Counted from the first letter of the stretch, positions 5,132-38,637 are shown. The stretch is DNA of 64,000 nt from a bacterium (GCA_018266105.1 JAFEBA010000018.1:7258-71257); one strand, 5' to 3'. Translations and numbers: made by a program. The notes: generated by a model from the sequence alone, not told the origin.

Positions 5132-5455
5132 ATGCGACAGAAACCTCAGCGACCGCAACCCACTGAGAAGGTTCTCGACTACGATGATGGCGACCCTTAC
5201 TCGTGCATTGCGGCCGGGCGGGAGGAAGAACGACTGCAGCAGCGGCTGCAGCGTTCGGTAGAGGAGTGCTACGGAGAACCGGAGCAGCGCCTGGAGCGAC
5301 TGGCCGAGCAGGACCTGGCCAGCGTGAAAACGGCCCTTTACGATATTTGGGATCGCGAGCGCAGCTCGCAGAGCAATCCGGAGCTGGGGGACTGGGCCGC
5401 GGCCCAGATGGGCCGGCTGGGGGACCGCCGGCTGCTGGACTACGAGCGCCCTTAG
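5132..5455 (+). CDS. Small acidic hypothetical protein (about 108 aa, MRQKPQRPQP…).
   Basis: Internal Met of track ORF 4952..5455 with a GGAAGG upstream. Composition is charged and helical-like (…ERLQQRLQRSVEECYGEPEQRLERLAEQDL…). Its stop overlaps the 5452..5931 gene stop in convergent orientation. Confidence 0.4.
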   Translation: MRQKPQRPQPTEKVLDYDDGDPYSCIAAGREEERLQQRLQRSVEECYGEPEQRLERLAEQDLASVKTALYDIWDRERSSQSNPELGDWAAAQMGRLGDRRLLDYERP

Positions 5456-5931
5456 TTTTTCTTCGGGTGGCGGAAGACCCAAGGGGGGATGGGGTCGGAT
5501 TGGGCCCAGAGGCCGCGATGGCGCTGCTGAGCTTCCGCCTGAATGGGCATCCAGTATTCGGGCGCTCGACAGTAACGCGTGAAGACCCAGGCCTGGCCGT
5601 CGCGGACTTGACGCACATTGAGGTTGGTCCCGTCGGGCAGGTAGAGCTGCCCAAGTATGCGCCCGTAGCGATCCTGTCCCAAAGGAAGCAGATGGACCTG
5701 AGCGCCGTTGGGAATGAGCTGGCGCAGGGCCTGGCGGGATTCTGGACCGCCTGGCTGGCGCTTTTCGGGAGCATCAATGCTGTCCAGCCGCACTTTCTGA
5801 ATGCCCTGTTGGGTCTGTAGTTTGACGGTGTCGCCGTCGGTGACCGACAGCACCCGAGCAGGTAGCAGCGGCTGAGCGGGCACCGCCAGTTGTACGGTCA
5901 GCCAGAGGCCGAGCAGGCGTGTGTGGATCAT
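5452..5931 (-). CDS. Secreted thermonuclease (staphylococcal nuclease / SNase-like) family protein.
   Basis: Signal peptide followed by the SNase hallmarks: VTDGDTVKL, RLDSIDAPE, DRYGRILG and a C-terminal GLW segment. Confidence 0.85.
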   Translation of the reverse strand: MIHTRLLGLWLTVQLAVPAQPLLPARVLSVTDGDTVKLQTQQGIQKVRLDSIDAPEKRQPGGPESRQALRQLIPNGAQVHLLPLGQDRYGRILGQLYLPDGTNLNVRQVRDGQAWVFTRYCRAPEYWMPIQAEAQQRHRGLWAQSDPIPPWVFRHPKKN

Positions 5932-5985
5932 GGTCTACTCAGAATACCGCCTGGAGCGACATTTTTTGTCGCGCTCTTTGAAGGT

Positions 5986-6279
5986 TCAGGGTGTGCGCTG
6001 ACCTCGGCGGTTTTGCAAGCGGGCCCGAATATTCTGCCGTTCCTGCTGGTCGACTTTTCCATCTTTGTTGGTGTCTAGCCGCGAGCGGAGCGCCTGACGG
6101 GCGGCTTCCTTTTCGGCCTCATCGAGCTGGCCGTCGCCGTTGGTGTCGTATTTGGCTTTGAGCTGGGCGCTGGCGGCCTGCCATTCAGCCTGGTCGATCT
6201 GGCCGTCGCCGTTGGTGTCGAGGGTTGTCTGTGCGCTGGCCAGCTGGCAGAGGGTGAGGAAGATGATGAGCTTTTTCAT
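5986..6279 (-). CDS. Secreted EF-hand calcium-binding protein (about 97 aa from the internal Met MKKLIIFLTLCQLASA).
   Basis: Three canonical EF-hand loops: DTNGDGQIDQAE, DTNGDGQLDEAE and DTNKDGKVDQQE. Signal peptide present. The track ORF starts 50 codons upstream, but the signal peptide only makes sense from Met51 (ATG at 6279). Confidence 0.75.
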   Translation of the reverse strand: MKKLIIFLTLCQLASAQTTLDTNGDGQIDQAEWQAASAQLKAKYDTNGDGQLDEAEKEAARQALRSRLDTNKDGKVDQQERQNIRARLQNRRGQRTP

Positions 6280-6387
6280 AGGTGTGAGTTTAGCATGGCT
6301 TTCACGAAGGTTCATGGGGGTTTTGTGAAGAGTCTGTGAAGGTCGAATTCTGCAAGTTTTGCCGCAAGAATGTAGAATGATTGGCTG

Positions 6388-8271
6388 ATGTCCGAACTGA
6401 GCCCCATTTTGAAAACAATCCTGGAGCAATTAGGTCGGCAATTTGGGCAGGACCAGAAGCCAGTGACCACCCTGGCCTTGCTGCGTGAGTTGCGCACTCG
6501 TGGAAATTGCGGGGCCTGGAAAGTGCTTCAGCATGCCGAGCTCTTGTTTTTGGATTTACCTGAGCCTGTGGATGAGGGTGACTCAGGCATCCTGAGCACA
6601 AGCATGAAGGGTGCCTGGGTGAGCGCCGAGTTCCTGGCCAAATCTTCAAGGATGCTGGAGACCCAGCACCTGTTGCGAGGCTTGGCGCGCGAGAAGACGG
6701 GTGCGGCCGGACGCTGGCTTCGAGACAAAGGATTTGAGGAAGACCGGGTGGACTGGAGTCAGTTTTCGGACCCTCGCTCTCCGGCCGAAACACCGCCCGA
6801 TCTGTCGGGTCAACGGATGGTGCATATTTTCGGCACAATCACTTATCTTGCAATGGGTATGGATGATTTGCTGGGGCCCTTCTTTTCACTGATGGGGCTA
6901 TTATTCTTGACGCAGACGGTGGATTTGTTCAGTCGAGTCCGAGGCTGGAAGTTCGATCCAGAGCGATGCGCCCGATGCCGAACTGAACCTGAAATTCCCG
7001 CAATGCTAGATTCTGAGTCAGGCCTGTGCCGAGTTTGTGAACGCAAAGTGTTAAGCATTCCCGGTCGAAATTACCTTTTGCTCTTGCTTTTCCTAACCCT
7101 TACCTCTGCCTTCTATATGCAGCTCTACCAGCCGATTGGACTCGTACTGGCGAATTTGGGTTTGTCAATTTTACTGACCGGAGTGGCGACCTTTGTGCAT
7201 GAATTGGGCCACCTGCTGGCTGGAGTGATTGCAGGCTACCGAGTGGTGTCTCTACACCTGGGGAGCGGCGATTTGCGGAAGGGCTTCAAATTGGGGCCCA
7301 TCTGGATTTATCTGCAGGCCCAGCCTGTAGGCGGCATGGTGATGTCTCTAGCGCCTCGGACTCGAGCCCGACGTTGGCGTTCCGTGCTCTACTCGTTAGC
7401 CGGTCCGGGAGCGAACCTCTTCATGGCCTGGCTGATGTGGAAGAGCCTGGACGGACTTCCTGGACTGAATCTGAGTCAAGCCTGGTGCCAGGGATTGCAG
7501 CCAGCCTTAACCTTCTTTTACGTCAATCTGGCCATGGCCATCAATAACCTGTGGCCGCGCTATTCGGTCGCCGGAAGTCACGGTCAACTGCCCTCAGATG
7601 GTAGAGCCGCGCTCGATGCGCTGCGCGCCGGCAAGCAGGCTTCGCCCAAATTGCTTGAAACGCTCACCCTGCTTCAGGCCGGCATTTACCGGGATTTTGG
7701 CAATCACGAGGCCGAGCTTCTCTTCCTGGATGAAGCGGTGCTGGAGCCTGACCGGGCACAAAAGTTGCATCGGATGTTTCTGCTGGGCGAGTTGGAGCGT
7801 TGGGAGGAAGCTCTCGCGATCTTACCCGAATTGTTGGAGCCGGATGTCACGATGACCCCGGAGCAGCGCAGCGTGGAGTTGAACATGCTGGCCTGGTCTC
7901 AGTATATGTCCGGGGATCTCGAGCAGGCCGACCGTCTCTCCGCCGAGTGCCTGGAGTTGTTTTCGGAGTTATCCAATAATCTGGGCACCCGAGCGGAGGT
8001 GCTGGCCGCCCGTGGTCATCTGGCCGAGGCCAGGCCGATGCTGGAAAAGGCGATTCAGGTCAGCCTTTGTCACAGGTCGACGGCTCACAATTGCAAGGCC
8101 CTGGCGCGGCTGGCAGCTTTGCAGGGGGATCTGGGGGAGTTTGAACGGCTCAGCCTGTTGGGACGCAAGCTTGATCCCGAGAAGGCCGCTTATGCCTCAG
8201 CCCAAGATGCCGTGGAGGACGCCCGAGGTCGCGGCCACTGGGTGCCGAAGGCCGGCGTTGGCCCCCCTTAG
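6388..8271 (+). CDS. Membrane zinc metalloprotease, M50/site-2-protease-like, with a C-terminal TPR-like helical repeat domain (627 aa).
   Basis: HELGH zinc motif inside a hydrophobic segment (FVHELGHLLAGVIAGY). A second membrane motif, AINNLWP…SDG, resembles the S2P NxxP…LDG motif. The C-terminal 200 aa are helical-repeat-like. Confidence 0.55.
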   Translation: MSELSPILKTILEQLGRQFGQDQKPVTTLALLRELRTRGNCGAWKVLQHAELLFLDLPEPVDEGDSGILSTSMKGAWVSAEFLAKSSRMLETQHLLRGLAREKTGAAGRWLRDKGFEEDRVDWSQFSDPRSPAETPPDLSGQRMVHIFGTITYLAMGMDDLLGPFFSLMGLLFLTQTVDLFSRVRGWKFDPERCARCRTEPEIPAMLDSESGLCRVCERKVLSIPGRNYLLLLLFLTLTSAFYMQLYQPIGLVLANLGLSILLTGVATFVHELGHLLAGVIAGYRVVSLHLGSGDLRKGFKLGPIWIYLQAQPVGGMVMSLAPRTRARRWRSVLYSLAGPGANLFMAWLMWKSLDGLPGLNLSQAWCQGLQPALTFFYVNLAMAINNLWPRYSVAGSHGQLPSDGRAALDALRAGKQASPKLLETLTLLQAGIYRDFGNHEAELLFLDEAVLEPDRAQKLHRMFLLGELERWEEALAILPELLEPDVTMTPEQRSVELNMLAWSQYMSGDLEQADRLSAECLELFSELSNNLGTRAEVLAARGHLAEARPMLEKAIQVSLCHRSTAHNCKALARLAALQGDLGEFERLSLLGRKLDPEKAAYASAQDAVEDARGRGHWVPKAGVGPP

Positions 8272-10076
8272 AAGCGGTGGGCGGCGCTGCCGAAGCGGTC
8301 GGAAAGGGCGCTGGCGTGGACGCGCAATCGGTAGGGTTCGGAGCTTGGGGGAATGGGCAGCTCGAGGCTGAGGTAGCCCTGTGCGTCGCTCTGGTGGAGG
8401 CCGAGGTAGAGACCCGGGTTGAGCGGGGGAGGGTCGGGTGGATGCGCGGGTTCGGGTGGGCTGTGAGGCTGGCGGCCGGGCAGTCGGTCGAGGTTGCTGG
8501 TGAGTGTCAGCCAGCACTCGGGTTGGGGCAGGAAGGTGGAGAGGGGGTCGGGGCTTTCCCCAAGGTCTTGTTCAAGCAGGACCAGAAGCTCTGCCGGGAC
8601 CGGGGGATGAACCTGCACCCGGAGTTGCCCGGGGGCGGGCAGGCTGAGGGTCAGCTGGAGGCGGCGGTGTTCATCAGACAGGCCGAGCAGGGCCTGGGCC
8701 TGGAAGTGACCCTGAGCGCAGAAAGCATCGGCTCGCACCAGAACGGCGGGCTCCATGCCCGGCTGGATGGGAAAGCTCCAGTGGCTCCAGGGCTCGTCTA
8801 CGCGGCGGTTCTGGAGTTGCAGCAGGGAGCCGCGCCACAGGCCGAGCAGGACATGGGCGGGCCAGCTCTGGAGGCCCAGGCGCAGGTTGAGGGTCTGGCC
8901 GGGTTGCAGTTGGCCTTCGGGCAGCTCCAGAGCGCAGCTGGGGGTGGGACTTTCGGGCGGGGAATAGCGCTGCGGGCTGGCCTTTGCGCCCAGTTCCAGT
9001 CGGTAGTCTTCGCCTTCCGGGCCGGGAGCCACCAGGCTGAGTTTCAGGCTGCGCGCCTGCCACGGCCAGCGAAAGAGAAAGCCGCCATCGGGGCTGAGGG
9101 GCTGGCGCATCGTCTGGCCCCAGCAGGTCGCTTCCAGATAAGGGGCATAGGCGGGTTCCAGCGGGGAGGCCGGACTGTTCTGGCGGCGCAGCCAGCCGGC
9201 CACCACCAGCTCCTGGCTTTCGTTCAGGTGGGTCTGAAGCAGAAAGAAGCGGCCGCGCTGCCAGCTGGCCTGGGGCGGCTCGGCGTTCTGAACCAGCACT
9301 TCCATCTCCCCCAGGCGCCCCAGCTGAGGGGCTTCGCCATCACCCAGACCGATCCATGAGCGCCCGATTTGATTCAGGTGGTCCAGCATCCCCGAGGCGT
9401 CGCTCTCTCCGCTGGGGAAGACCAATCCGGCACAGGGCCGGGCCTCACTCAGGTGGGTGGCCACCAGGAAGCGGCGGCGGGGCAGATGGTAGTAGCTGAG
9501 CCCCAGATTGCTGACGTCCAGCAGCAGACTCTGGCGCCAGCCGCCCTCGGCCGCCAGTTCCACGGCCACGAATCCGTGGGGGTGGGGCAAGGCGGGCGAG
9601 AGATCAACTTGCACCAGGCCCTCGGGCTGGTTGAGCTGGAAGCAATGCTCCCATTGCTGCAGTAGAAAGTCTTCCTGATTCTCGGTGCCGTCATAAAAGG
9701 GGTCCACCTGCTCGCGGTTGAGACGCTGCAGGCGCACCTGCAACTGGCTCACCTGCTGGCAGTGCACTGGCAGCAGGGGGCGCTGCCAGGGCAGGGTGGC
9801 CTGGCGTGGCGGGGTGGCAAACTGGGCCAGGGGCACGGTCAGGACCAGCTCTTCCAGTTGTTCTTGCTCCTGAGCGTCGCGGTAACGCAGTTGCAGCAGT
9901 TGGGGACCCGCCTGCAGTTCCAGTTCGACCGACCATTGCTCGCGTTTCTGCAGATGCATGTGGCCTAAGCGGCCTTCCAGAATCTCCACGCCTTCACGAA
10001 AATCCAGCAGTGCCCACATGCGAACGCGGCTTTGCTGGCGCTGGAGCCGGAAGCGCTGGTCGGTTACGATGCTCAT
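8268..10076 (-). CDS. Large hypothetical protein (602 aa). Third gene of an ATGA-coupled three-gene operon.
   Basis: Its ATG overlaps the stop of the upstream gene (tcat at 10073..10076). Composition is protein-like and W/Q/L-rich. The antisense plus-strand ORFs are low-complexity. Confidence 0.6.
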   Translation of the reverse strand: MSIVTDQRFRLQRQQSRVRMWALLDFREGVEILEGRLGHMHLQKREQWSVELELQAGPQLLQLRYRDAQEQEQLEELVLTVPLAQFATPPRQATLPWQRPLLPVHCQQVSQLQVRLQRLNREQVDPFYDGTENQEDFLLQQWEHCFQLNQPEGLVQVDLSPALPHPHGFVAVELAAEGGWRQSLLLDVSNLGLSYYHLPRRRFLVATHLSEARPCAGLVFPSGESDASGMLDHLNQIGRSWIGLGDGEAPQLGRLGEMEVLVQNAEPPQASWQRGRFFLLQTHLNESQELVVAGWLRRQNSPASPLEPAYAPYLEATCWGQTMRQPLSPDGGFLFRWPWQARSLKLSLVAPGPEGEDYRLELGAKASPQRYSPPESPTPSCALELPEGQLQPGQTLNLRLGLQSWPAHVLLGLWRGSLLQLQNRRVDEPWSHWSFPIQPGMEPAVLVRADAFCAQGHFQAQALLGLSDEHRRLQLTLSLPAPGQLRVQVHPPVPAELLVLLEQDLGESPDPLSTFLPQPECWLTLTSNLDRLPGRQPHSPPEPAHPPDPPPLNPGLYLGLHQSDAQGYLSLELPIPPSSEPYRLRVHASALSDRFGSAAHRF

Positions 10077-12775
10077 CTGAGTTCCTCGCGAAGCCGGGCG
10101 GCCAGGGTCCAGAGAGCCTTTTCGTCCGGGGGATAGGCCCAGTTCAGACGTTGCTGCAGCTGGTCGGGGGAGATCTGCTGCAGCGGCCTGGGGTCGATCA
10201 GACGCCAGATGGTCAGCTCTTCGTTGCTGGCCACTGCCAGCCGGCTGCGCCGACCTTCGTAGGCATACTCCTGGAGCCAGGAATCGCGCAGGCTTAACAG
10301 CAGCTCGCCGCTCCGGGCTTCCCAGAAGTCTCCATTGCAGCCCAGCAGGCTGTGTTGGTCCTCGAGTAGCAGGCTGATGTTACCGGTGGCTTCGGGGGCT
10401 CGGTAGGAACGACAGACCTGATCGGGGGCCTGGCTGAGCACTACCTCGCCGTAGGAGCTGGCGGCCGCCCACCAGTTGCCGGACGGTGAGCAGGCCTGGT
10501 GGCGCACGTAGAGATGGGTGGGTTGGCCTCGCAGCGTCCATTCCGAATTGCGGTTTTGGATCGGACGGGGTTTGCCATCTTCCCAGTCCAGCCAGCGGTA
10601 CTCGAAGAAGGCCCCGCGCTGGTCGATTTGCAGGTCGCCGCCCGGGTGTTTGAGCTTCCGACACCAGCCGGACCGACCGTCCTCTCGATGGTGCAGAGCC
10701 AGGCACCGGTCTTCATGGGAGGGGCCGCTGAGAACCGCAATCCAGCCGTTGGGTGGAAAATAGAACTGGATGTGCTGATGGGGATGCTTCAGGCGAGTGG
10801 ACCAGAGCATTTCGGTCAGGGCGGCGTCCCAATACTGCACACGGGTGCGGGTGGCCAGCACCAGTCCCGGGCCGCGGGGGTCGGCGGCCAGGGCCACCAG
10901 ATCCGGCCAGTCCCGCCATTGGCGCTCGAAGAAGAGGCGGCTGGCGCGCGCGCCAATGATTGCGAAATCCACTCGGCCCGGGCAAAGGGCGATGTTCTGC
11001 CGGTGCCGCTCGGGCCTGATTTCGGCCAGCAGCTCGGGTTGCAGGGCGCGCAAAGCGGGCTCCAGCAGGTCCTCCCAAGGGCCGGGCAGATCCTTGAGCA
11101 GCGGCAGCGAGCGGCGCAACGGCAGGCGCGGCAGTATGCTGCGCAGTTGCTGAGGTTGGATCCGGCTGAGCAGCTCGGCCCAGTCCGAGGGTGAAAAAGA
11201 GCCGACCTGAGGATTCTCCCAGCGGTTGATGAGTGACAGTTGCTGTCGCTGCACCAGCTGCTGGCGCAGGCGTCGGGCCTGCTCGGGCTGGAGTTGTTCC
11301 AGCAGAGGTCGCAGGTCGCCAGCCGGTTTGCCTTCCAGCCAGTCCAGCAGCGGCAGCCAGGCTTCAGGCCAGGGGTGGCGGCGCAGGCCGGCCACCAGAC
11401 CGGGACGAGGCTGGTCGACGAGCAGCAGTGCCAGGTTTTGGCACCAGGCCGGCGGCAGTTCTTGGGAAAGCAGTTCAAGCAGGGGTTCATCGTCGGGGCA
11501 TTCCAGCAGCCCCGGCCAAATTCGTCCGGGTGGAAAATGAGCCAGATCGTGCCAGCGGCGCTGGCTCACGGCGGCCCAGACCCATTGGCGATGGTCCCGG
11601 TAGGGCTGGCAGTCGGAACTCAAAGAGCGAAGTTCAGGATGCCGACGACTGAGGGCAAAGAGGCACTGACTGCGGTAGGGGCGCACCCGCGGCCAGCAGG
11701 CCTGCAGCAGACCGGCCGCATCGCCCGACGGAGAGTTGCGGCGCAGGCGTTGGTAAAAGTGAACTTCATTGCCCAGGCAGCACACCAACCAGCGGTCGTT
11801 GGGGCTGACCGCCACCCGGCAGTGGCCCTCGTTGGGGGACCGGAAAAACTGCAGCAGCCGGCCGCTGGCGCTGGAGTAGACGGCCAGACCCTCTTGGCAG
11901 ACGGCCAGCACCAGCCGTCCGTCACGGCTGGCGGTGAGATTTTGTCCGGAGTGGGTGCGCAGGCAGGCTCCAAAATCTTGCATCAGGCTGCCGTCTTCCA
12001 GCGACCAGCGCGTGAGCTTGGAGCCGGAAGCAACCAGGAGTTGTTGTTGTCCGGGCAGGTGCAGCCAGGAGGGGGATGGGCCGGCCACCTCCTGGGCTCG
12101 GGCCAGCACGCGGCCGTCCTCCCAGGCGTGGTAGGTCCAGTTGCTCTGAGGGCACCCAAGAACGTAGCCGGCTGCACCGCGGGCGAAGGCGGTGAGGTCC
12201 TCGGGCAGGGGCGCCAGCTCCAGGCCATCCTGCAGCCGATAGAGGCCGGAGGGGCTTTTGAAACGGCTAACCACCACCGCTTCGGATTCGGGCAGCTGGC
12301 CCATGATCTTGTAGCCCCGGGATTGCCAGACCAGCTGGCCGCTGCCGAGGTCAAAGAAGAGGATGTTATCATTTTGCCAGATGGCCAGCCGCTGGCCGAT
12401 CGCCCACACCTCGGACAGGTATTTGATCTCAGGGCTGGCCGCAAAGCGGCGGTGGGGGCGGTGGCGACTGAGGTCCCAGAGCTGCCAGTGTTGGTCTCGG
12501 GTGGCCAGCATGCGGTCGGGGCCGGTCAGCCAGCCGCGTTGGAAATCCAGCTCCACCGGGGTGGCTTCGGGCAGGTCCCAGAGCAGGTTGCCGGTCAGGG
12601 CGTAGTCATCCTCCAGGCTGAGCTGCCAGGTGAAATCGCCGCTTGGGGTCCAGAGGCGCTGGGCGCACAGTTCATAGGCGTCCTCATATTCAGGCGCAGC
12701 CAGCCAGGCGGCTGCCTCTCGGGTCTGGCCGGCCAGTTGCAGCAGTTGACCAAGGTCGCGGTGCCAGTCGCTCAT
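10073..12775 (-). CDS. Very large hypothetical protein (about 900 aa from MSDWHRDLG…), Trp-rich with beta-propeller-like repeat motifs. Middle gene of the operon.
   Basis: The track ORF 10073..13162 begins with 129 Arg/Pro/Ala-rich codons overlapping the upstream gene. Trimming to Met130 gives an ATGA overlap at 12772..12775. Blade-like motifs are visible (…DGRLVLAV…, …SPNDRWLVCC…, …LAIWQNDNILFFDLGSGQLVW…). Confidence 0.6.
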   Translation of the reverse strand: MSDWHRDLGQLLQLAGQTREAAAWLAAPEYEDAYELCAQRLWTPSGDFTWQLSLEDDYALTGNLLWDLPEATPVELDFQRGWLTGPDRMLATRDQHWQLWDLSRHRPHRRFAASPEIKYLSEVWAIGQRLAIWQNDNILFFDLGSGQLVWQSRGYKIMGQLPESEAVVVSRFKSPSGLYRLQDGLELAPLPEDLTAFARGAAGYVLGCPQSNWTYHAWEDGRVLARAQEVAGPSPSWLHLPGQQQLLVASGSKLTRWSLEDGSLMQDFGACLRTHSGQNLTASRDGRLVLAVCQEGLAVYSSASGRLLQFFRSPNEGHCRVAVSPNDRWLVCCLGNEVHFYQRLRRNSPSGDAAGLLQACWPRVRPYRSQCLFALSRRHPELRSLSSDCQPYRDHRQWVWAAVSQRRWHDLAHFPPGRIWPGLLECPDDEPLLELLSQELPPAWCQNLALLLVDQPRPGLVAGLRRHPWPEAWLPLLDWLEGKPAGDLRPLLEQLQPEQARRLRQQLVQRQQLSLINRWENPQVGSFSPSDWAELLSRIQPQQLRSILPRLPLRRSLPLLKDLPGPWEDLLEPALRALQPELLAEIRPERHRQNIALCPGRVDFAIIGARASRLFFERQWRDWPDLVALAADPRGPGLVLATRTRVQYWDAALTEMLWSTRLKHPHQHIQFYFPPNGWIAVLSGPSHEDRCLALHHREDGRSGWCRKLKHPGGDLQIDQRGAFFEYRWLDWEDGKPRPIQNRNSEWTLRGQPTHLYVRHQACSPSGNWWAAASSYGEVVLSQAPDQVCRSYRAPEATGNISLLLEDQHSLLGCNGDFWEARSGELLLSLRDSWLQEYAYEGRRSRLAVASNEELTIWRLIDPRPLQQISPDQLQQRLNWAYPPDEKALWTLAARLREELR

Positions 12776-14964
12776 GACTGCTCCTGGAGGGCCTTGAGCC
12801 AGGCCCGCAGGCGCTCGGGGAGATATTGGTCGGGCTGCGGGGGAGACGAGTCTTGCAGCGGCGAGAACTGCAGCTGGCCGTCTTGCAAGGCCAGCAGCCG
12901 GTCGGGGGCGAGCACGCAGGTCTCGGGAAGGCGGCCCAGCCGCTCGGGCCGGAGCGCGTCCAGCAGCCAGGCTTGCTGGCCGATGGTGACCCGAGCGTAG
13001 CCGTGGCGGGCTTCTTCCAATTGGAGGTCTTCGGCCTCCAGGCGGCCGAGTTCGCGGCCTTCCTGCAGGCTGTAGAGAGCCTGGCTGCCCTGCACGATCA
13101 GACGCGGGCCGTCCTGCACCACCCGGCGCACGGCCGAGAGGTTGCAAAAGCGATGGACGCAATCTCCGGTCTGGGGATCAAACAGGCTGACCGTGGCGTG
13201 CAGGCCCAGCAGAATGGTGCTGCCCAGGCGGTCCAGGCAGCCGGCCGCCAGATAACCGTCGTGAAAGCCGACCCAGCTAACCTGACCGTCCTGTTCGGCC
13301 TGGCAGAGCTGGCCCAGGGTATCGGCTTCCCAGATCTGGATTTTCTCTTTGTGGGTGGTCGCCAGCCAGCGGCCGTCCGGACTCCAGGCCAGAGTCTGGC
13401 GAGCCCAGCTGCCTACGAATACGGGTCCTCTTGAAATAACGGGCTCGGGAAGGTCGGTGGAGCCTAGCAGGGCGGGCTGGTTGCGGCGCAGGCAGAGCAC
13501 CCGCAACTGCTGGCCGTGGGCGTGAGCCAGGCGGGTGGCGCAGGGGGAGAGCGCCAGCGGGCCTTCGGCGATGGCCTGACTCCAGAGGGTGCGACCGCGG
13601 GCGTCGCAGCAGCTGAGCTGGCCGTGGTGACGCAGCAAAAGGCCTTGAGGGAGAAACCAGATTTGTTGAGGTTCTGAGTCCGTCTTGCACTCTCCCAGCA
13701 GGCACAGTTCGGGGTAGCTCCAGATTTGCAAGCGTTTCTCATTCCAGAGCAGCAGCCGGTCGGATTGGGGGCTGAGCTGTAAGGAGTGGGCCGGGGTTTC
13801 CATGAGGCTGTCCCATCGGGGCACAAAGCATCGGATGGGAGCGCCGTCGAGCAGCTTGAGCAGGCGATGAAAGAGGGGCCGATTGTGGCGAGGTTGCCAG
13901 CCGCTTTCGGCCAGTTTCAGCAATTGCTCAGAAGCCTGTCCCGCCGGCAGGGAGCGCAGAGCCTGCCAGCTCACTTCCGGGTTGTTGGCCAGCGGGTCGT
14001 CCAGGCCTCGGCGCTGGAGTTCCTCTTGGACAGGCCGGGAGAACTGGCCGTCGTGCTGCAGCTCCTGGAGTTCCTCGCTGGGAAAGTCTTGCAGACTTTG
14101 ACCTTGGGCCAGAGCCAGCAGCACCCGCAGGCCGGGTTGGTGGGTGGTCCAGCCGCGCTTGAGCCAGTGGCGACGCAGTTGGGGCTGGCGAGTTTGGGCC
14201 CAGAGCCAGAGAATGGAGCCGGGTTCGCCGGCCAGGGCGGCCAGGATCTGGGAGTGGTATTCCGGATAGTGGCGAGCCAGTTCCAGCAGGCCGGCGGCCA
14301 GACGTCCAGGCGGCTTCGGAATTCGATCCCATTCGTTGATTTTGGCGCGCAAGAGCAGGCTCAGGGCGACTTGAAAAGGGAGCCCGACCAGCTGGCGGCA
14401 GGCCAGCTCGCGCCAGTTGGGCTGGCCCAGGTAGTCCAGCAGGCGGGCGGGGGGCAGGGGGCGCCCAGAAAGCAGGCAGCTCTCTGCCCAGCCGGGCTGG
14501 CCTTCCGCCGGTAGCCAGCCCAGGTCCTGCACCAGCTGGGCCAGCTGGGCTGGACAGTCGGGGCTGGCGCTGTGGCTCAGCATTCGGTCGCGCTCGGGGG
14601 TTGGATGGCTGAGGCAGTCCAAGATCTCGGAGTAGTGGTGCTCGAGTTGATGGATGATCAGTCGGTCGGCCCCGCTTTGGAGAAGGCGCTGCCAGGGTGG
14701 GCGGCCCCAGGGGCTCAGGCGATCCAGTCGGCCGGCCTCAAGCTGCTGGCGGGCGGCCAGGCTGGGGGGGCAAAAGGAGCCGGTTTGAAGGGCCTGGAGA
14801 GCGGTGGAGGCGGCTTCGGGGGGCATCCAGCCAAGGGATTCAAACAGCCAGTCCCAACGGGCCTCGTCTCTCCAAAGGGTTACGACGTCGGTCCAGCTCA
14901 CTGAGCCCGCTTCGACGGCCTTTGGGAACCCGCCTGCGGTGCCCAAAGCACCCTTTGGAAACAT
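12772..14964 (-). CDS. Large hypothetical protein (730 aa) with C-terminal WD40/beta-propeller-like motifs. First gene of the operon.
   Basis: The long ORF has WD-like segments (LAWSPDGRWLATTHKEKIQIWEADTLGQL; SPQSDRLLLWNEKRLQIWSY). Its stop overlaps the next gene's ATG. Confidence 0.6.
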   Translation of the reverse strand: MFPKGALGTAGGFPKAVEAGSVSWTDVVTLWRDEARWDWLFESLGWMPPEAASTALQALQTGSFCPPSLAARQQLEAGRLDRLSPWGRPPWQRLLQSGADRLIIHQLEHHYSEILDCLSHPTPERDRMLSHSASPDCPAQLAQLVQDLGWLPAEGQPGWAESCLLSGRPLPPARLLDYLGQPNWRELACRQLVGLPFQVALSLLLRAKINEWDRIPKPPGRLAAGLLELARHYPEYHSQILAALAGEPGSILWLWAQTRQPQLRRHWLKRGWTTHQPGLRVLLALAQGQSLQDFPSEELQELQHDGQFSRPVQEELQRRGLDDPLANNPEVSWQALRSLPAGQASEQLLKLAESGWQPRHNRPLFHRLLKLLDGAPIRCFVPRWDSLMETPAHSLQLSPQSDRLLLWNEKRLQIWSYPELCLLGECKTDSEPQQIWFLPQGLLLRHHGQLSCCDARGRTLWSQAIAEGPLALSPCATRLAHAHGQQLRVLCLRRNQPALLGSTDLPEPVISRGPVFVGSWARQTLAWSPDGRWLATTHKEKIQIWEADTLGQLCQAEQDGQVSWVGFHDGYLAAGCLDRLGSTILLGLHATVSLFDPQTGDCVHRFCNLSAVRRVVQDGPRLIVQGSQALYSLQEGRELGRLEAEDLQLEEARHGYARVTIGQQAWLLDALRPERLGRLPETCVLAPDRLLALQDGQLQFSPLQDSSPPQPDQYLPERLRAWLKALQEQS

Positions 14965-15048
14965 TTTTTAGGGCACGGGTTGTTTTGTGAGGGCCAAGAT
15001 GATAAACTGGAGATCTCGTCGCTCGCGGTCTTCGCAACATTGTTAATT

Positions 15049-15534
15049 CTAACAGCCTCGAAGAATGATTTTGGAAGAGGACGCGACGTGATTGAGCTGA
15101 AAACGCCCGACGGTATTATTAAGTGGAAGTTCGGTAAGCATTTGAAGGGCGAGGATCTGGCGCTGGAAGTCTTTCGGCGCCCCCGTCCGGGCCTCTTTGG
15201 CCGGGAACCCGGTCTCCCCTGTGAAAAGGCCCATCGGCGCCGGGATAGCTTCTTGCATCTGGCTGAGACCATCTGGCCCAATTTCGAAGTGGTGCGGGAT
15301 ACCCACCCCATGGACGCCGGCGGCTAAACGGACGGGGCTGGCCGCCAGCAGGGCCGAGCCCACGCCGTGGCCGACCGCGTCCAGCAGCAAGAAGCAGAGG
15401 ATGTCTTCGTTGATGAGGCAGTTGAAGCAATCGCCGCCCACGTGGAAGGCGGGACGCAGAGCCCCAGATATGGTCCACTGCCCCAGGCTCATGTCTCCGT
15501 GGGGCAGGCCTTCTTCCACCACCAGGCGGGCCAT
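15049..15534 (-). pseudogene. Remnant of a PP2C/SpoIIE-family serine phosphatase. The N-terminal half of the domain is recognisable; the C-terminal half is missing or deleted; an in-frame TGA lies just upstream.
   Basis: …ALRPAFHVGGDCFNCLINEDILCFLLLDAVGHGVGSALLAA matches the PP2C motifs (…PA…VGGDFYD…, DxxGHGVxAALL). Only about 100 residues follow instead of the usual 150 or so, and the conserved PLG…GD…YTDG block is absent. Upstream in the same frame, a 40-codon protein-like segment ends at a TGA only 5 codons before the Met. Confidence 0.4.
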
Positions 15535-15969
15535 CCGAAGCCAGTCGGATCAGACCGCTCCGAAGAGTCGAGGCACGGCCTGCTCAATCAGGGCCACGAT
15601 CGCGGCCGGTTCAAAAAGGTCGATTAACTCCTCGACCAGCTGGAGCAAGAGCTGGGACTGGCCGGGAAAGCAGCCTCAGCCCTGAAGAGTTCGGCCCGAC
15701 CTGCGAGCTTTGGAAGCGGCTTGAACCACCCAGAGCGTGTGCACGTGCGCCTTGGGGTTCAATTTGACCGGCATGTAGCGCCGCCAGCCGGGGAGCTGAT
15801 CGGAGGGAAGCCTGCGAGCGGCTCGGCGGGTGGGGTCCTCAGGTTGGAATGAATGCATGGGCAACCTCATTTCGGCAAAGCCAGGCACCCTGGGAGATGG
15901 CTTGGTTTTAACGGGATATCCAACACCTTTCGTACAGGCGCTCCGCTCTTCCTGCAGCCGGGAGGCTAT

Positions 15970-16557
15970 TTAGGACCTGGGAGCTGGAGCGCCGCATCGG
16001 CCGCAGAAGCGGTGGTCAGGCTCCAGCCTGGCTCTGCAACCAGGACACAGGCGCTCCAGTGGGGTGCCGCAGTGAATGCAGTAGCGGCTTTGTGGCTCGA
16101 CGGTGCGGGCGCAGTGGTGACAGTGTGGGGCGCTTGCGCCCGGACGGGCCCAGGCCAGCTCCAGCGGCTCCAGTCTGACCAGCCAGCTCTGGGCTCCCTG
16201 AAGAAGCTGCAGCTCGTTGCTGGAGCTGAGTTCAAAGATTCGCTCACCGCCGCAACCGCTCCAGGTGCCGCAGAAGAAGGCCCCCCTGGCGTCCTGGCTG
16301 AGGCTGAGGTGATCCTCTCCCTGACTGTTGTGCAAAGCCAGAATTCCGCCAGGTTCAAAAGGGCAGGGCGTCCAACGGCCCTGCCAGTGCGAGCCCTGGG
16401 AGGCGGAGACGCCCACCAGCTGGGCCAGAACCAACAAACCCTCTCGGATAGAGAGGGCGTTCGCCTGCTCCAGGCCCCGACAGAATGCATCCAGGGCCCG
16501 GGCCTGTTGGGGGCTGACTTGACGCGGTTGGCTTTCAAGGGGTTGGGTGCTGTTCAC
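15970..16557 (-). CDS. Double zinc-ribbon domain protein (195 aa).
   Basis: The C-terminus reads CHHCARTVEPQSRYCIHCGTPLERLCPGCRARLEPDHRFCGRCGAP, i.e. two CxxC…CxxC ribbons. It overlaps the upstream gene by 23 nt. Confidence 0.6.
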   Translation of the reverse strand: MNSTQPLESQPRQVSPQQARALDAFCRGLEQANALSIREGLLVLAQLVGVSASQGSHWQGRWTPCPFEPGGILALHNSQGEDHLSLSQDARGAFFCGTWSGCGGERIFELSSSNELQLLQGAQSWLVRLEPLELAWARPGASAPHCHHCARTVEPQSRYCIHCGTPLERLCPGCRARLEPDHRFCGRCGAPAPRS

Positions 16558-19339
16558 GCCAGTCCTCCAAGAATCGCTGTCGCGGCAGGTAGCCGTAAAG
16601 GGCGTGAGATTCGGAGATGCCCTCCTCGGGTTGATAGTAGCGGTAGCCCACGGATGGATCGTAGCGATAGTCGGGGCCGGTATCCAGCTCCACTCCCTCC
16701 AGTTGTCGGGTCAGAAGTTCTGAAATCAGGTCCAATCCGGGGGCCACCGAAAAGCCCAGACTCGCCAGCAGGGTGCGCAACACCACATGGGCGCCGCGTC
16801 CGCTGGCCGTCAACCAGTATTTCCAGCGCAGGAGAAAGCGCCGTTCTCTTTCGTTGCTGTAGAGTCCATCGGGGTGCAGATACTGGTCCTCCCGCCAGTG
16901 CTGTTCCCACCAAGGGTCCAGACCCCGTGGGTCCTGCATGGGGTCCATGCCCGAGAGGAAAATGCCGCTCCAGGCGTGGATGAAGCCAAGCCGGTAGTTT
17001 TCAAACTCGATGGCGTTCATGCTGCTGACCACACCGATCCGGTCGGGGCTTCCGGCCCGGTAGTGGCGTCGGGAGCAGAGCCATTTGCAGATGCGATTGC
17101 GCAGTTCGGAGCAGACGAAGAGGCGGTAGAAGCGGTCCTGGGGTTGGTTGGTGTCGTGGCCGGAAAGAGCGAGGGTTACGTTCCAGAGCGGTCCGCGCAA
17201 GGCCGGCACCAGGTGCAGCAGGGCCAGGCCGACGGCCGAGGCGGTTTGCAGGGTTTGCAGATAAGGGCCGTTTCCAAAACATGGATTCGTCAGCTTTAGC
17301 TGGCCTTCCTCAGCCATCAGGTCTTGCAGCAGGCGGCTGAGGTTGGCGGCCACCTCCAGGCTGAGCGTCAGCGCCGGGCTCTCTTGTTGGTTCGGGCTTT
17401 CCACTTTGAGGGCTAATTGGAAGACGGTTTGGTCGTAGTTGCTCCAATCCAGGCCTGTGTAGGTGAGAACGAACTGGCAGGACCCATCGGGTCCGGTTCT
17501 GGCCTGATTGATGGGCGGGTCCAGGCGGGCCGTTCCGCTCGTCTGGATCTCCAGCCGGAGTTTGCTGTCGGCCAGAGTCTGGCTGGAGTCACCGTGCAGG
17601 AAGAGCAGGCACCAGGCTTCGCTGGTGGCGCGTTTCAGGCCGGGCACCAGCCAGCAGCGCAGGTCCAGGAAGCGTGGTTTGAGAGGCTGGTCGCGCAGCA
17701 GAGGCTGCTTAAGGTAGTTGGCGGGAGCGCTGGCCGAGGTTTCCACCTGCAGATGCAGGATGAGTTCTTGAGAGCGGCGCTCGGGGGCGTCCAGCAGGGG
17801 TTTGGGGGTAAGAAAGGTGAGCAGTTGCCCGCCTTCCTCCAGGCTTTGCGGGGGCAGCCAGTCAAATCCCGGCAGGGCCTCGCCCTGCAGTTTCCATTCC
17901 CAACTCCACCACTCGGGTCGCACCAGCTGGATCAGTCCGATCTCTCGCGTTCCAGGCTTGTCGCTGCGGCAGCAGGCCAGGGCCAGCTGGAGCTGATCCT
18001 CGCCGTCGGTCACCAGCTCGAAGCCTTCCAAAGTCAGATTGCGATAAAAGCGTTGGCAGGGGTCAGGCCAGCCCTGGAGGATCATCTCCAGTTGCGGTCG
18101 GACGCGATAGGACACAGTGGCGGTATAGATCTGACCGTCGGCAGCGCCGATTTTGAGGGTGGCCTGGATGCAGCCGTCGTGGTCGGCCAGGTCCGGGCCC
18201 AGAAAGGTTTCCAGGTCCAGTGGGGCGACCCGCAGGGTCAATTGACCGGGGCCTTGCTGGAGAAACTCCTTGAGCTCCAGAGCGGGGGGCTTAAATTGCA
18301 GGGTGGTGTTACCCGCATGAATTGGAAATCCAGGTTCGATTGGATGGTCTGGTTGGCCGGGCTGATGAAAGCAGGCGATGATCTCGGCAAAATCCCAGCC
18401 CTGGCGATAGAGCACGTCTTGACTGGGGTGGCCGCGGACCCAGGCGCTGAGCACCAGCTGGGGTGGAGTCAGGGTCACCTGAACCTGGGCGCTGGTCCGG
18501 GCCAGACCGGCCACGGCCGTGATCTGAAGTGGGGGGGGCTTTTGTTGGCCTGTCAGCAGCACCTGACAGGTCAGGCTGCCCTGGCCCTGGGCCGGTTGAG
18601 CTTGCAGACCGGGCGGGGCCTGAATGGAGATCAAAGCATCGGGCGCGGCCACAGGTCCGGCTGCAAGGTCAATCCTCCAGGCCGTAATGGTAAGCCCGGT
18701 GCTTTGTCCGGGCGCCAGCTGCAGCGAATCGGAGCTCAACTGTAGGGCGTAGCGTGGGGGATCGTTCTTTGGGTTTTGGCGGGTCTTGAGCTGTCGCCGG
18801 GCGATGGCCACCACGGCCGCTGCTCCTAGAGCGCCGGCTCCGACCACCAGCGTCCAGTCGGGAAGCGAGGACTGACCCGGAAAACCCGGCCGGCAGCCGG
18901 GAAAGAGGTGGGTCAGATAGTCGTCGCGTTCCTGAGCGCTGGCGAAGGCCTGTTCGACCGGAAAGGGTCCCTGCTGGGTGACGCGCTCGGGATTGGTCCA
19001 CTGGAAGGATCCGAAGTTCCAGACTTTCCCCATGGAGTTAAGTCGGCAAAAGCCGTAGCGGGTGGTGGGCGGCTGCTGGCACCGCACTTTCAGGCAGGCC
19101 ACCACGGCGCTGGCTTGGACCGGGTCAGGTATGCGAGGGTCGTGCAGCTTGCGCAGTTGCAGCTCAGAGACCGTCAGGGATTCCCCGATTTCTTGGGATA
19201 GGGTGGGCTGACGGTTCTTCCAGGCGGTCTGGATGTCGGAATCGGTGGGCATGCCCAAGGAGGGCAACCACCAGGGGTCGGCCGCGGCCGCCCAGGTCCA
19301 AGCCAACCAGAACCACAGCAGCACGAGTCGCCTGAGCAC
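16535..19339 (-). CDS. Large single-pass membrane protein (934 aa): signal peptide, extracytoplasmic domain of about 150 aa, one TM helix, and a cytoplasmic domain of about 740 aa. Function unknown.
   Basis: N-terminal MLRRLVLLWFWLAWTWAAAADP, then a hydrophobic stretch WTLVVGAGALGAAAVVAIARRQLKTR. The rest is protein-like with no recognised family. Confidence 0.6.
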   Translation of the reverse strand: MLRRLVLLWFWLAWTWAAAADPWWLPSLGMPTDSDIQTAWKNRQPTLSQEIGESLTVSELQLRKLHDPRIPDPVQASAVVACLKVRCQQPPTTRYGFCRLNSMGKVWNFGSFQWTNPERVTQQGPFPVEQAFASAQERDDYLTHLFPGCRPGFPGQSSLPDWTLVVGAGALGAAAVVAIARRQLKTRQNPKNDPPRYALQLSSDSLQLAPGQSTGLTITAWRIDLAAGPVAAPDALISIQAPPGLQAQPAQGQGSLTCQVLLTGQQKPPPLQITAVAGLARTSAQVQVTLTPPQLVLSAWVRGHPSQDVLYRQGWDFAEIIACFHQPGQPDHPIEPGFPIHAGNTTLQFKPPALELKEFLQQGPGQLTLRVAPLDLETFLGPDLADHDGCIQATLKIGAADGQIYTATVSYRVRPQLEMILQGWPDPCQRFYRNLTLEGFELVTDGEDQLQLALACCRSDKPGTREIGLIQLVRPEWWSWEWKLQGEALPGFDWLPPQSLEEGGQLLTFLTPKPLLDAPERRSQELILHLQVETSASAPANYLKQPLLRDQPLKPRFLDLRCWLVPGLKRATSEAWCLLFLHGDSSQTLADSKLRLEIQTSGTARLDPPINQARTGPDGSCQFVLTYTGLDWSNYDQTVFQLALKVESPNQQESPALTLSLEVAANLSRLLQDLMAEEGQLKLTNPCFGNGPYLQTLQTASAVGLALLHLVPALRGPLWNVTLALSGHDTNQPQDRFYRLFVCSELRNRICKWLCSRRHYRAGSPDRIGVVSSMNAIEFENYRLGFIHAWSGIFLSGMDPMQDPRGLDPWWEQHWREDQYLHPDGLYSNERERRFLLRWKYWLTASGRGAHVVLRTLLASLGFSVAPGLDLISELLTRQLEGVELDTGPDYRYDPSVGYRYYQPEEGISESHALYGYLPRQRFLEDWREQHPTP

Positions 19340-19384: not shown

Positions 19385-19816
19385 TCAAGCGGCCTGGCAT
19401 TCCTCCAGCAACTGGTCCACGCGCTGGGCGTGGTCTTCGATCAGCTCGAGGGTGGCGTTGGCGAAGGCGGCACCCCCGGCTTCCAGTTGCCCCAGCAGGG
19501 TGTCCACGGTCCCGGCCAGTTCCACATAGACCTTGGCCGAGGCGGCGATGACGGGGCTGTCACCCAGGGCGTGGAGCTGGTCGGCCACACGCCAGATGCC
19601 GTCCAGGAAGCGTTCGCAAAAGTTGAGCAAGTCGTCGCTGATGTCTCCGTAGGCCACGGCGCTTTCCACTCGCTGGCGCAGTTCCATAACCTTGGCCCGC
19701 ATTGGTTTAGGACCATTGCTCTGGACCCGTTCGTCCACGGTCAGGTCGAGTTGGCCGCTGGGGTTGGCCAGAAACTGGTTTCGGCGAGCCATTTGCTTGA
19801 AGAGTTCGAAGTTCAC
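19385..19816 (-). CDS. Small all-helical hypothetical protein (143 aa), translationally coupled (ATGA) to the upstream papain-fold protein.
   Basis: Its ATG overlaps the stop of 19813..20925. Helical composition, no signal peptide. Confidence 0.5.
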   Translation of the reverse strand: MNFELFKQMARRNQFLANPSGQLDLTVDERVQSNGPKPMRAKVMELRQRVESAVAYGDISDDLLNFCERFLDGIWRVADQLHALGDSPVIAASAKVYVELAGTVDTLLGQLEAGGAAFANATLELIEDHAQRVDQLLEECQAA

Positions 19817-20925
19817 TGGGCCTCCGCGCTTTTGGGTCGATAGACTTTGACATCCGGCAGGTGGTTGTAGGGACCAATTTCGGAATACTCAATGGTCGGG
19901 TTCTTGGCCCGGTCATCGTAGGTGCCCCAGCGGTCATTGGCGGCGTTGTAGACCCACTTGCGTCGGTCCACCCCACCCACTTCGTTCTGGGCGCTGCGGG
20001 TTTTCCAGTCGCCGCCGGCGCCCCAGGAGGAGTCGAGGGTGTAGACATGCACCTCGGCATTGTGGCCGGACCCCTGCCAGAATTCGTTTTTGGAATTGTG
20101 CAGCTTGGCCACTTTGTCGGCGCTCATGGTGGTGTGGTCGTAGACCGAGACCCAGTGGCCGGCTTCACCGGGGCTAGGGTCAGTGAGACGGATGATATCT
20201 CCGGCTCGGGCCCGGATCGGTTTGCCCGCCTGTTGCGGCACGCGGCTGAACTGTTCAGGCGAGAGGCTTTGCTGCAGGGAATCGCCGTTGCGGTTGACTC
20301 CGCCCAGGCCCAGGTCGCGGCCGGCGGCTTTGCTGGCCGCCTGGGCCACGTAGCCGGCGCAGTCGCTGCCCAGACCGAACTCCCATTGGAGCTTGCGAAC
20401 GCGGGCCGAATCGGTGGTATGGTCGCCGCTGGCGGGTGGGAGCTTGCCTGCGTCGATGAGGGCCTGGGTGACCAACTTGAGTTGTTCGGGAGTGGCTCGG
20501 CCCATGCCAGCGGCCGAGGCGGCCGAGCGCAGGGCCGGGTTCTGTTTGATTTCCGGTAAGGCCTCGCCGACCTTCGCCATGGTGTTGATCCGGCCCTTAG
20601 AGGGTTCTTTTCCCTCAGGGTCACTGAGGCCGCCTTCCATTTGGAACTGGGGAAAGACTTTGACGGTGCGTGGGGCCTCGCCGGGAGTATCGGACGGAAT
20701 GGTGTAGGTCGAGCGCATGCTGTTGCGAAAATCGTCCAGCCGGGCCTGGGTCACTTTCTTGTCGTAGGGGGGCACCACCGGAGCGGTGGGAGCCGTGCCA
20801 ACCAGTCCGCCCAGCGCTTCGTTGGCCGCCTGGCGCAATCTTTCGAAGGGATTGAAGCCGGCGCTCTGAGTGGCCTGGAGGCGCTGGACCGGAGAGGTTC
20901 GCTGTTCTGTGTTGATGACCGCCAT
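19813..20925 (-). CDS. NlpC/P60- or CHAP-like (papain-fold Cys/His) domain protein with a disordered N-terminal region of about 190 aa. No signal peptide.
   Basis: …GSDCAGYVAQA… and, about 60 residues later, …GDIIRLTDPSPGEAGHWVSVYDH…. Spacing and context match the NlpC/P60 catalytic Cys and the GD…(G)HVGIY His motif. Confidence 0.5.
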   Translation of the reverse strand: MAVINTEQRTSPVQRLQATQSAGFNPFERLRQAANEALGGLVGTAPTAPVVPPYDKKVTQARLDDFRNSMRSTYTIPSDTPGEAPRTVKVFPQFQMEGGLSDPEGKEPSKGRINTMAKVGEALPEIKQNPALRSAASAAGMGRATPEQLKLVTQALIDAGKLPPASGDHTTDSARVRKLQWEFGLGSDCAGYVAQAASKAAGRDLGLGGVNRNGDSLQQSLSPEQFSRVPQQAGKPIRARAGDIIRLTDPSPGEAGHWVSVYDHTTMSADKVAKLHNSKNEFWQGSGHNAEVHVYTLDSSWGAGGDWKTRSAQNEVGGVDRRKWVYNAANDRWGTYDDRAKNPTIEYSEIGPYNHLPDVKVYRPKSAEAQ

Positions 20926-33854: not shown

Positions 33855-33929
33855 TGGCTGCCCAGGTAGGGATCGAACCTACGAATGACGGATTCAGAGA
33901 CCGTTGCCTTACCACTTGGCTACTGGGCA
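33855..33929 (-). tRNA. tRNA-Gln(CTG): tRNA-Gln (anticodon CUG), with CCA encoded.
   Basis: Reverse complement: TGCCCAGTAGCCAAGTGGTAAGGCAACGGTCTCTGAATCCGTCATTCGTAGGTTCGATCCCTACCTGGGCAGCCA. The acceptor stem pairs, the T-arm reads GTAGG-TTCGATC-CCTAC, and the anticodon loop CUCUGAA gives CUG. Overall layout parallels E. coli tRNA-Gln. Confidence 0.8.
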
Positions 33930-33948
33930 ATATGACGATGTAAAAGAC

Positions 33949-34020
33949 CTGGCCAGGTTGGGATCGAACCAACGAATGCCGCTTCCAAAGAGCGGTGCCT
34001 TACCACTTGGCTACTGGCCA
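33949..34020 (-). tRNA. tRNA-Gln(TTG): tRNA-Gln (anticodon UUG).
   Basis: Reverse complement: TGGCCAGTAGCCAAGTGGTAAGGCACCGCTCTTTGGAAGCGGCATTCGTTGGTTCGATCCCAACCTGGCCAG. Anticodon stem CCGCT/AGCGG, loop CUUUGGA giving UUG, T-arm GTTGG-TTCGATC-CCAAC. Confidence 0.8.
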
Positions 34021-34061
34021 ACGAGTTGACCACGCCATACTAATGATTTTCCCCCTTCAGG

Positions 34062-38592: not shown

Positions 38593-38637
38593 TGGGTCAG
38601 ATTCTCCCTGGGGTTGGAGAAGGCCCGCTTCCTACCC

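Follow-up and report, generated by a model that had tools for sequence, protein, structure and literature searches.

We analyzed a 64,000-nucleotide stretch of bacterial DNA (GCA_018266105.1 JAFEBA010000018.1:7258-71257; referred to as the window) and found that three consecutive genes on its minus strand, here called A, B and C, form a translationally coupled unit that is conserved and very rare. A and B carry WD40-type repeats joined to domains that lie outside known families, whereas C probably descends from the alpha-2-macroglobulin (A2M) family and corresponds to a truncated array of macroglobulin (MG) domains. As judged by sequence comparison, these domain identities, taken alone, can be assigned with good confidence. 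The overall arrangement that we favor, a soluble, cytoplasmic scaffold complex of the three proteins around a truncated and thioester-less macroglobulin-type array, is put forward tentatively, with a likelihood that we place a little below even.

A coupled and very rare gene unit

Reading of the gene junctions confirmed the claim of the original prediction, an earlier note made on the window from its sequence, that three consecutive minus-strand open reading frames (ORFs) are joined by two ATGA stop/start overlaps (Table 1). That the genes are co-translated, as the note also held, is supported by conservation of the coupled arrangement and of the gene order in the closest relative, a Vulcanimicrobiota metagenome-assembled genome (MAG) locus (L002), and on a 200-kb Joint Genome Institute (JGI) metagenome contig (L003), as well as by the junction between B and the next gene on a fragment contig (L004). 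The length of 730 residues originally given for A should be revised to 709. The GTG codon at 14901 is the likelier start because the NCBI annotation gives 709 residues and the A homologues of L002 and L003 both begin with MSW at this position; the 21 codons between the ATG at 14964 and this GTG have no counterpart in the A homologues.

The coding strand stands as first called, with a GC content at third codon positions (GC3) of 0.78–0.79 in A, B and C, matching other window genes, and with L002 proteins that are conserved with almost no gaps. The description of all three proteins as tryptophan-rich holds for A (4.1%) and B (4.9%), set against 0.6–3.3% in ten other window genes, but C is only mildly so (2.7%). 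A, B and C are identical to the hypothetical proteins JST97_09305, JST97_09300 and JST97_09295 in NCBI. They carry no function annotation and have no single-sequence match in PADLOC, NCBIfam or PDB, and the PADLOC-DB models gave zero matches at E≤0.1 for the three proteins and six neighbors. An Rfam scan found no RNA element near the operon.

In L002, orthologues of A, B and C of 712, 899 and 602 residues occur in the same order and with the same 4-nucleotide overlaps. Identity between the window and L002 is 64% for A, 64% for B (899 positions, one gap) and 56% for C, compared with 82% and 87% for flanking genes encoding proteins of 370 and 143 residues, and 79% for an SNase gene. By this measure of 56–64% versus 79–87% identity, the trio is kept intact while diverging two to three times faster than the genes around it. 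The gene upstream of A in L002 is divergent, so that the trio constitutes its own transcription unit there.

The trio is also conserved as a unit in L003, as judged by alignments at about 25% identity, and the triad of the original prediction accordingly recurs in two related loci. In L003 the B homologue P0047 (918 residues) is preceded by a 688-residue protein whose alignment with A starts at residue 1 (25% identity, pairwise E 2e-29), and is followed by a 166-residue ORF and then by a 1390-residue protein, with all of these genes overlapping by 4 nucleotides or longer. The end of the gene for the 1390-residue protein is in turn overlapped by a gene at L003 17386–18519 (plus strand), which encodes a 377-residue type I phosphodiesterase/nucleotide pyrophosphatase (E 1e-21, with a weak PglZ match) and has no counterpart in the window or in L002. 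In L004, B is followed by an ORF weakly similar to the 166-residue ORF of L003.

When 1.84 billion cluster representatives were searched exhaustively with B by HMMER (phmmer), 73 matches were returned, 70 of which are multi-stretch matches to B residues ~85–355 (mostly 220–345). The true members of the B family among the 73 are P0007, a 236-residue fragment, and P0047, and for both the best-matching stretch is the C-terminal signature of B described below. B and P0047 match with E 8e-13 pairwise and 6.9e-5 library-wide. A word-index protein search with B and C found only the query proteins themselves; it was blind to the L002 orthologues because the 90% clusters of these are represented by fragments of 51 and 301 residues. 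Pattern scans revealed no further loci in 185,579 species genomes and none in metagenome or viral contigs, and tblastn with A and with the A2M-like 1390-residue protein of L003 gave no match in plasmids. The unit was sighted at four loci among about 15 billion proteins, all of them environmental and none from a cultured organism.

Domain composition of the three proteins

Single-sequence scans of the trio against Pfam, NCBIfam, PADLOC and PDB gave nothing beyond sub-threshold WD40 matches, and the original prediction had described three beta-propeller-like proteins of no recognizable family that could not be assigned to WD40. Small family profiles and the exhaustive search lead to a different view: A and B match WD40 proteins, and C shows no propeller signal and is an A2M-related all-beta protein. 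The impression of propeller-type repeats was therefore correct for A and B, and the absence of a known family still applies to A 1–360 and to the middle and tail of B.

In A, a profile built from the three homologues was compared with PDB and matched the WD40 domain of PkwA (E 1.4e-8, four stretches), followed by WDR48, PWP2, WDR61, FBXW7 and WDR5, with many WD40 chains at E<1e-3. The PDB matches fall on A residues ~497–606, and in a local hmmsearch the WD40 matches lie mainly at profile positions ~495–640, with a few weak ones starting from 373. Pfam, scanned with the single sequence, recognizes this region only below threshold (WD40/THOC3 at 523–568, 15.4 versus 27 bits). On the strength of the profile matches, A contains genuine WD40 repeats. 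The N-terminal 360 residues, which we presume from their sequence to be helical, have no Pfam match even when scanned alone at E≤10.

The best match of B in the exhaustive search, P0006 (E 7.6e-17), displays tandem WD repeats on reading, and by these matches B, too, carries WD40-type repeats. A single-sequence AlphaFold2 (AF2) model of B has a predicted local distance difference test (pLDDT) score of 38.8 overall, and consists of strands at residues 45–345, helices at 350–585 and sparse strands at ~600–740. The helical segment is the sole part with pLDDT 60–83; both beta regions are at 22–45, and the second, at 22–35, is uninformative. A likeness of the middle domain to MgtE_N/FliG-like folds was considered and rejected, as it never reached significance (Pfam E 0.017–0.26; PDB 2yvy E 0.2). 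The second beta region shows weak WD40 domain matches (profile positions ~660–785 in a local hmmsearch) and is probably a degenerate propeller. The most conserved signature of the family is at residues 861–899, where P0047 shares DPxPL...RLNxAY...ALW with B. A Foldseek search with the B model returned no match at E≤1e-3; it listed WD40 and propeller-plus-solenoid proteins (Atg18, IFT-A), on which we do not rely. hhalign gave no support for A and B as paralogues.

C is of a different kind. Its AF2 single-sequence model (pLDDT 42) is made up of nearly all strands, and a C-family profile gave matches to WD40 proteins at E>1 only. C is colinear with the 1390-residue third protein of L003 over two blocks, C 143–389 with 153–408 (BLASTP E 5e-8) and C 394–596 with 624–861 (E 6e-5), and hhalign aligns the two proteins at 81% (E 1.2e-5). 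The L003 protein matches the A2M domain PF00207 at 31–34 bits (cut-off 21; E 2e-7 to 3e-8), with a sub-threshold A2M_BRD directly before the A2M domain and a weak bMG5 further upstream.

A profile of the C proteins of the window, L002 and L003 matches residues 760–1062 of E. coli YfhM/ECAM with 90% probability (E 1.5e-6), pairing SPDPLSTF and DRFGS of C with TPDPWQAFF and DDFGS of ECAM. Between them, the Pro-rich insert of C falls at the position of the ECAM bait region, which includes Arg923–Leu942 and Phe947–Asn963 (PMC4498604), and we regard it, from this alignment, as a bait-like insert and a putative bait. Five residues past DRFGS, after about the first 40 residues of the A2M domain, C comes to an end. 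Foldseek with the C model returned the beta-chains of complement C5/C4/C3, A2ML1, A2M, cobra venom factor, Salmonella A2M and CD109 as top matches (E 7e-6 to 6e-4), interleaved with Ig/FnIII tandems; at a template-modelling (TM) score of ~0.12, this is consistent with an A2M relationship and is no proof of it.

The shortness of C raises the question of whether it is a remnant. Were the trio a set of lineage-restricted genes under weak constraint and with no joint function, C could be a truncation product heading for loss, and indeed it is less than half as long as the L003 protein, its identity (56%) is the lowest in the trio and its family is almost unsampled. We give this explanation little credence. 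Two genomes agree in the start of C, in its length of 602 residues and in its terminal motif DRFGS; none of the three ORFs is interrupted in 6.7 kb of sequence that aligns almost gap-free at about 60% identity; each overlap of a stop with the next start is retained; and the GC3 values are those usual for expressed genes of this genome. Equal length in two genomes at 56% identity, free of frameshifts, argues that the short form of C is maintained rather than decaying.

Table 1. Features of the three-gene unit and its upstream spacer, with positions counted from the first nucleotide of the window.
Feature	Position	Strand	Remarks
Gene A	12772..14901	minus	709 residues, GTG start at 14901 preferred; ORF 12772..14964, open to ATG 14964
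ATGA overlap, A stop/B start	12772..12775	minus	Same 4-nucleotide overlap at L002 12136-12139 and L003 10001-10004
Gene B	10073..12775	minus	900 residues; inside ORF 10073..13162
ATGA overlap, B stop/C start	10073..10076	minus	Same overlap at L002 14832-14835
Gene C	8268..10076	minus	602 residues; all-beta, multi-domain, truncated A2M-family (MG-domain) array
A 1-360, family-specific N-terminal domain	13822..14901	minus	Trp/Leu-rich; conserved from residue 1 in all three homologues
A ~373-640, WD40-repeat region	12982..13785	minus	Profile matches to WD40
B ~45-345, N-terminal beta region	11741..12643	minus	WD40-like blades, clearest at 220-345; phmmer matches, AF2 strands
B ~350-585, helical-repeat middle domain	11021..11728	minus	All helices in AF2 model
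B ~600-860, second beta region	10196..10978	minus	Aligns with P0047
B 861-899, C-terminal signature	10079..10195	minus	DPxPL...RLxxAY...E(K/R)ALW; terminal helices; invariant columns in four homologues
C 405-597, counterpart of bacterial A2M bait-region MG domain and first ~40 A2M-domain residues	8286..8864	minus	hhalign
C 533-555, Pro-rich insert	8412..8480	minus	Probably disordered; aligns with ECAM ~920-965
Spacer upstream of A	14902..15637	minus	AT-richer (GC 0.52 at 14900-15200); SpoIIE-like ORF remnant; terminator-like hairpin

A possible intracellular platform

A hydropathy scan detected neither a signal peptide nor a transmembrane helix in A, B or C, with no 19-residue window at membrane-helix level, in agreement with the original prediction as regards the signal peptide. 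All seven module proteins of the window and L003 lack an N-terminal hydrophobic segment, a transmembrane helix and the thioester motif CxEQ, which is thus missing from C as well as from the 1390-residue protein. Peak 10-residue hydropathy over the first 45 residues, from the hydropathy scan only, reaches 0.5 in C and 0.4 in the 1390-residue protein.

These observations bear on the possibility that the trio is an exported envelope protease-inhibitor complex of the Mag/YfaS type, reaching its destination through unrecognized signals, mis-called starts or a dedicated route. Such a role would agree with the only characterized bacterial relatives of C, which reside in the periplasm and work with partners encoded in their operons (PMC5764988, PMC3735191, PMC4498604), and with the presence of secreted proteins among the neighbors, such as an SNase with a signal peptide. 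Export is nevertheless improbable in our judgment: A, B, C and the L003 orthologues have no N-terminal hydrophobic segment, lipobox or transmembrane helix, MagA/B/C/E/F-type domains are missing, and C is devoid of the whole trapping half. Mis-called starts are also disfavored because the N-termini (MSW, MSDW) are conserved.

In the cytoplasmic complex that we favor, translational coupling would keep the synthesis of A, B and C in a fixed ratio. The scaffold role would fall to A and B, in each of which the WD40-type repeats are accompanied by a Trp-rich domain specific to the lineage; this domain is presumed to be helical in A and is helical in the AF2 model of B. C would be a chain of about six beta-sandwich MG domains descended from a thioester-less bacterial alpha-2-macroglobulin. 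The third protein of L003 is still full length, its MG, bait-region and A2M domains being accompanied by a long C-terminal body, and the C lineage would have been cut back just past the Pro-rich loop, losing MG9, CUB, TED and the C-terminal MG domain. As everything beyond the bait-region domain is lost, C should be unable to close a trap. We propose that it may serve as an intracellular platform, a rigid set of MG domains from which a loop is exposed. The WD40 surfaces of A and B may hold C or deliver clients to it, in a manner analogous to the association of MagD with proteins of its operon, or of insect TEP1 with two leucine-rich-repeat (LRR) proteins.

Several points weigh against this proposal. 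First, the assignment of C to the A2M family is transitive, passing through a single intermediate sequence, the L003 protein: a profile of C and L002 C alone finds no similarity to ECAM/YfhM, and the window C has no match to Pfam A2M (PF00207) even at E≤10, whether scanned whole or in pieces. Second, the AF2 models of B and C are poor (pLDDT 39 and 42), as is the TM-score of the Foldseek matches. Third, that the three proteins form a complex is something we infer. Fourth, a conflict-related role or relaxed constraint would account for the faster evolution of the trio no less well than a housekeeping scaffold would. Finally, the characterized bacterial A2Ms are, to our knowledge, all periplasmic, and we know of no intracellular precedent; nor did we find in the literature any paper linking A2M with WD40 partners in bacteria.

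The rate of divergence leads to the main alternative, a conflict (immune-like) module in which C would act as a decoy whose exposed bait-like loop is cut by an invader protease, with the WD40 proteins sensing or transmitting the event. The macroglobulin principle would here take the form of a guard/decoy system within the cell. The Pro-rich insert at the bait position, the extreme rarity and patchiness of the trio (four loci), the phosphodiesterase-family enzyme with its weak PglZ match coupled downstream in L003, and a PIN/PhdYeFM pair and a caspase-like gene in the vicinity of the L002 trio all agree with such a role. We nonetheless consider it unlikely, given that (i) the window and L002 versions have no effector domain, and the phosphodiesterase is absent from both, (ii) no PADLOC match was obtained and nothing was found on plasmids or viral contigs, and (iii) fast divergence is equally expected of non-essential scaffold proteins. 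A related and more far-reaching idea is that the trio represents the first intracellular member of the macroglobulin/complement superfamily, with a bait-bearing MG-domain decoy and two WD40 partners that would sense foreign proteases, as a prokaryotic and cytoplasmic counterpart of TEP/complement surveillance; to this we assign a slim chance.

WD40 proteins and bacterial A2Ms are both of known kinds. New are their pairing, the lack of an export signal, the stable truncation to an N-terminal array with a bait loop, and the family-less domains. If the platform model is correct, the macroglobulin fold would be used inside the cell as a platform or sensor rather than as a trap. Two otherwise orphan families of 700–900 residues also gain a first functional anchor from these findings. 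Practical value is limited for now, with four environmental loci, no cultured host and no predicted enzymatic activity.

Genomic surroundings and known systems

A terminator-like hairpin at 15618–15637 ends the upstream unit, and about 1 kb lies between the zinc-ribbon gene of that unit and A. The spacer holds a minus-strand ORF (15049–15534) with a SpoIIE/PP2C-like motif (GGDCF...DAVGHGVGSALLAA) and no Pfam match, possibly a gene remnant. Beyond it, two minus-strand genes that overlap by 23 nucleotides occupy 15970–19339. One encodes a 934-residue membrane protein whose N-terminus is signal-like and which has a single hydrophobic helix near residue 161; the other encodes a 195-residue protein that carries a double zinc ribbon at its C-terminal end (PF12773, E 3.7e-11). 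Both proteins are absent from L002 and L003, and the pair therefore looks like an insertion relative to L002. At 19385–20925 (minus strand) follow the genes of the 370-residue protein, which has a GSDCAGYV motif and is the papain-fold candidate of the earlier note, and of the overlapping 143-residue protein. This pair is found in L002, where it is more conserved than the trio, and is missing in L003; it has no match in Pfam, NCBIfam or PADLOC, and could be an enzyme/partner or toxin/immunity pair.

In the model of the original prediction, three family-less propellers and the upstream membrane, zinc-ribbon and papain-fold genes would together make up one system. A and B do have propeller-type repeats, and no library assigns a function to the proteins. 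The distribution of the neighbors is, however, difficult to reconcile with a single system: the membrane and zinc-ribbon genes do not travel with the trio, being separated from it by the hairpin and spacer, and the papain-fold candidate accompanies it in L002 and not in L003. Together with the A2M relationship of C, which has no propeller signal, this makes the model highly improbable.

On the other side of the trio, a plus-strand gene (6388–8271) encoding a 627-residue protein with Clp_N, Peptidase_M50 and TPR repeats converges on C, overlapping its stop by 4 nucleotides; this M50 peptidase gene is missing at the corresponding position in L002. It is followed by a segment at 5452–6429 (minus strand) encoding an EF-hand protein and the SNase, a staphylococcal-nuclease homologue with a clear signal peptide, the latter corresponding to the L002 gene directly after the trio. 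The SNase downstream of the L002 trio was considered as an effector of the operon and rejected, as it has a signal peptide and as, in the window, other genes lie between it and the trio.

The remainder of the window looks chromosomal, with alternative-complex-III-like genes, GGDEF/EAL proteins, an M13 peptidase, a histidine kinase and two tRNA-Gln genes. The last form a tandem pair at 33855–34021 (minus strand), with anticodons CTG and TTG, 18 nucleotides apart. Two large plus-strand genes encode a 1139-residue two-partner-secretion (TPS) exoprotein (25708–29127; N-terminal TPS secretion domain, E 1.7e-30) and a 1608-residue GGDEF-EAL protein (38464–43290), of which the first ~1150 residues are family-less and very acidic (19% Asp+Glu).

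Among known systems, the trio can be compared with type II (thioester-less) bacterial A2Ms, namely MagD of the P. aeruginosa magABCDEF operon and E. coli YfaS. Bacterial A2Ms are of two types, with and without a thioester, and the thioester-less MagD still traps protease; MagD forms complexes with proteins of its own operon, which bind and stabilize it (PMC5764988). The shared traits are a CxEQ-less A2M-family protein encoded in an operon with partner proteins, and a domain order, as in C, of MG domains and then a bait-region domain. In contrast to the trio, with neither signal peptide nor transmembrane helix, MagD is an exported protein that is retained in the periplasm at the inner membrane, and its partners belong to the MagA/B/C/E/F families where A and B are WD40/helical proteins; scans of A, B and the orthologues of both in L003 with Pfam and NCBIfam detected no member of the MagA/B/C/E/F (YfaT/A/Q/P) families. 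Protease entrapment of the MagD type would not be possible for the window C, which is truncated right after the bait-region domain.

Type I proteins, E. coli YfhM/ECAM and Salmonella SaA2M (PDB 4u48, 4rtd), resemble C in the bait-region MG domain and the next MG domain, covered by the homology to ECAM 760–1062, and in the motifs flanking the bait region. Identity is about 14%, and C has no CLEQ thioester, lipoprotein signal or adjacent pbpC. These proteins have eight MG domains before the bait region compared with about six in C, which has nothing after it.

The complement C3/C4/C5 beta-chain, which forms a ring of MG1 to MG6, provides another parallel, since C is near the size of the C3 beta-chain (~640 residues) and complement chains are its top Foldseek matches, a structural match obtained with a low-confidence model (pLDDT 42, TM-score ~0.12). 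Insect TEP1 with LRIM1/APL1C offers, by analogy only, a case of a macroglobulin-family protein with two repeat-protein partners. Complement and TEP1 differ from the trio in being extracellular animal proteins with thioesters, and the partners of TEP1 are LRR rather than WD40 proteins.

Finally, A and B may be set beside bacterial WD40 proteins such as PkwA of Thermomonospora curvata (PDB 5yzv). They differ from these in having no kinase, NTPase or other effector domain, and in that A 1–360, B 350–585 and the C-terminal signature of B match no known family. In their repeat regions, both A and B match WD40 profiles and structures.

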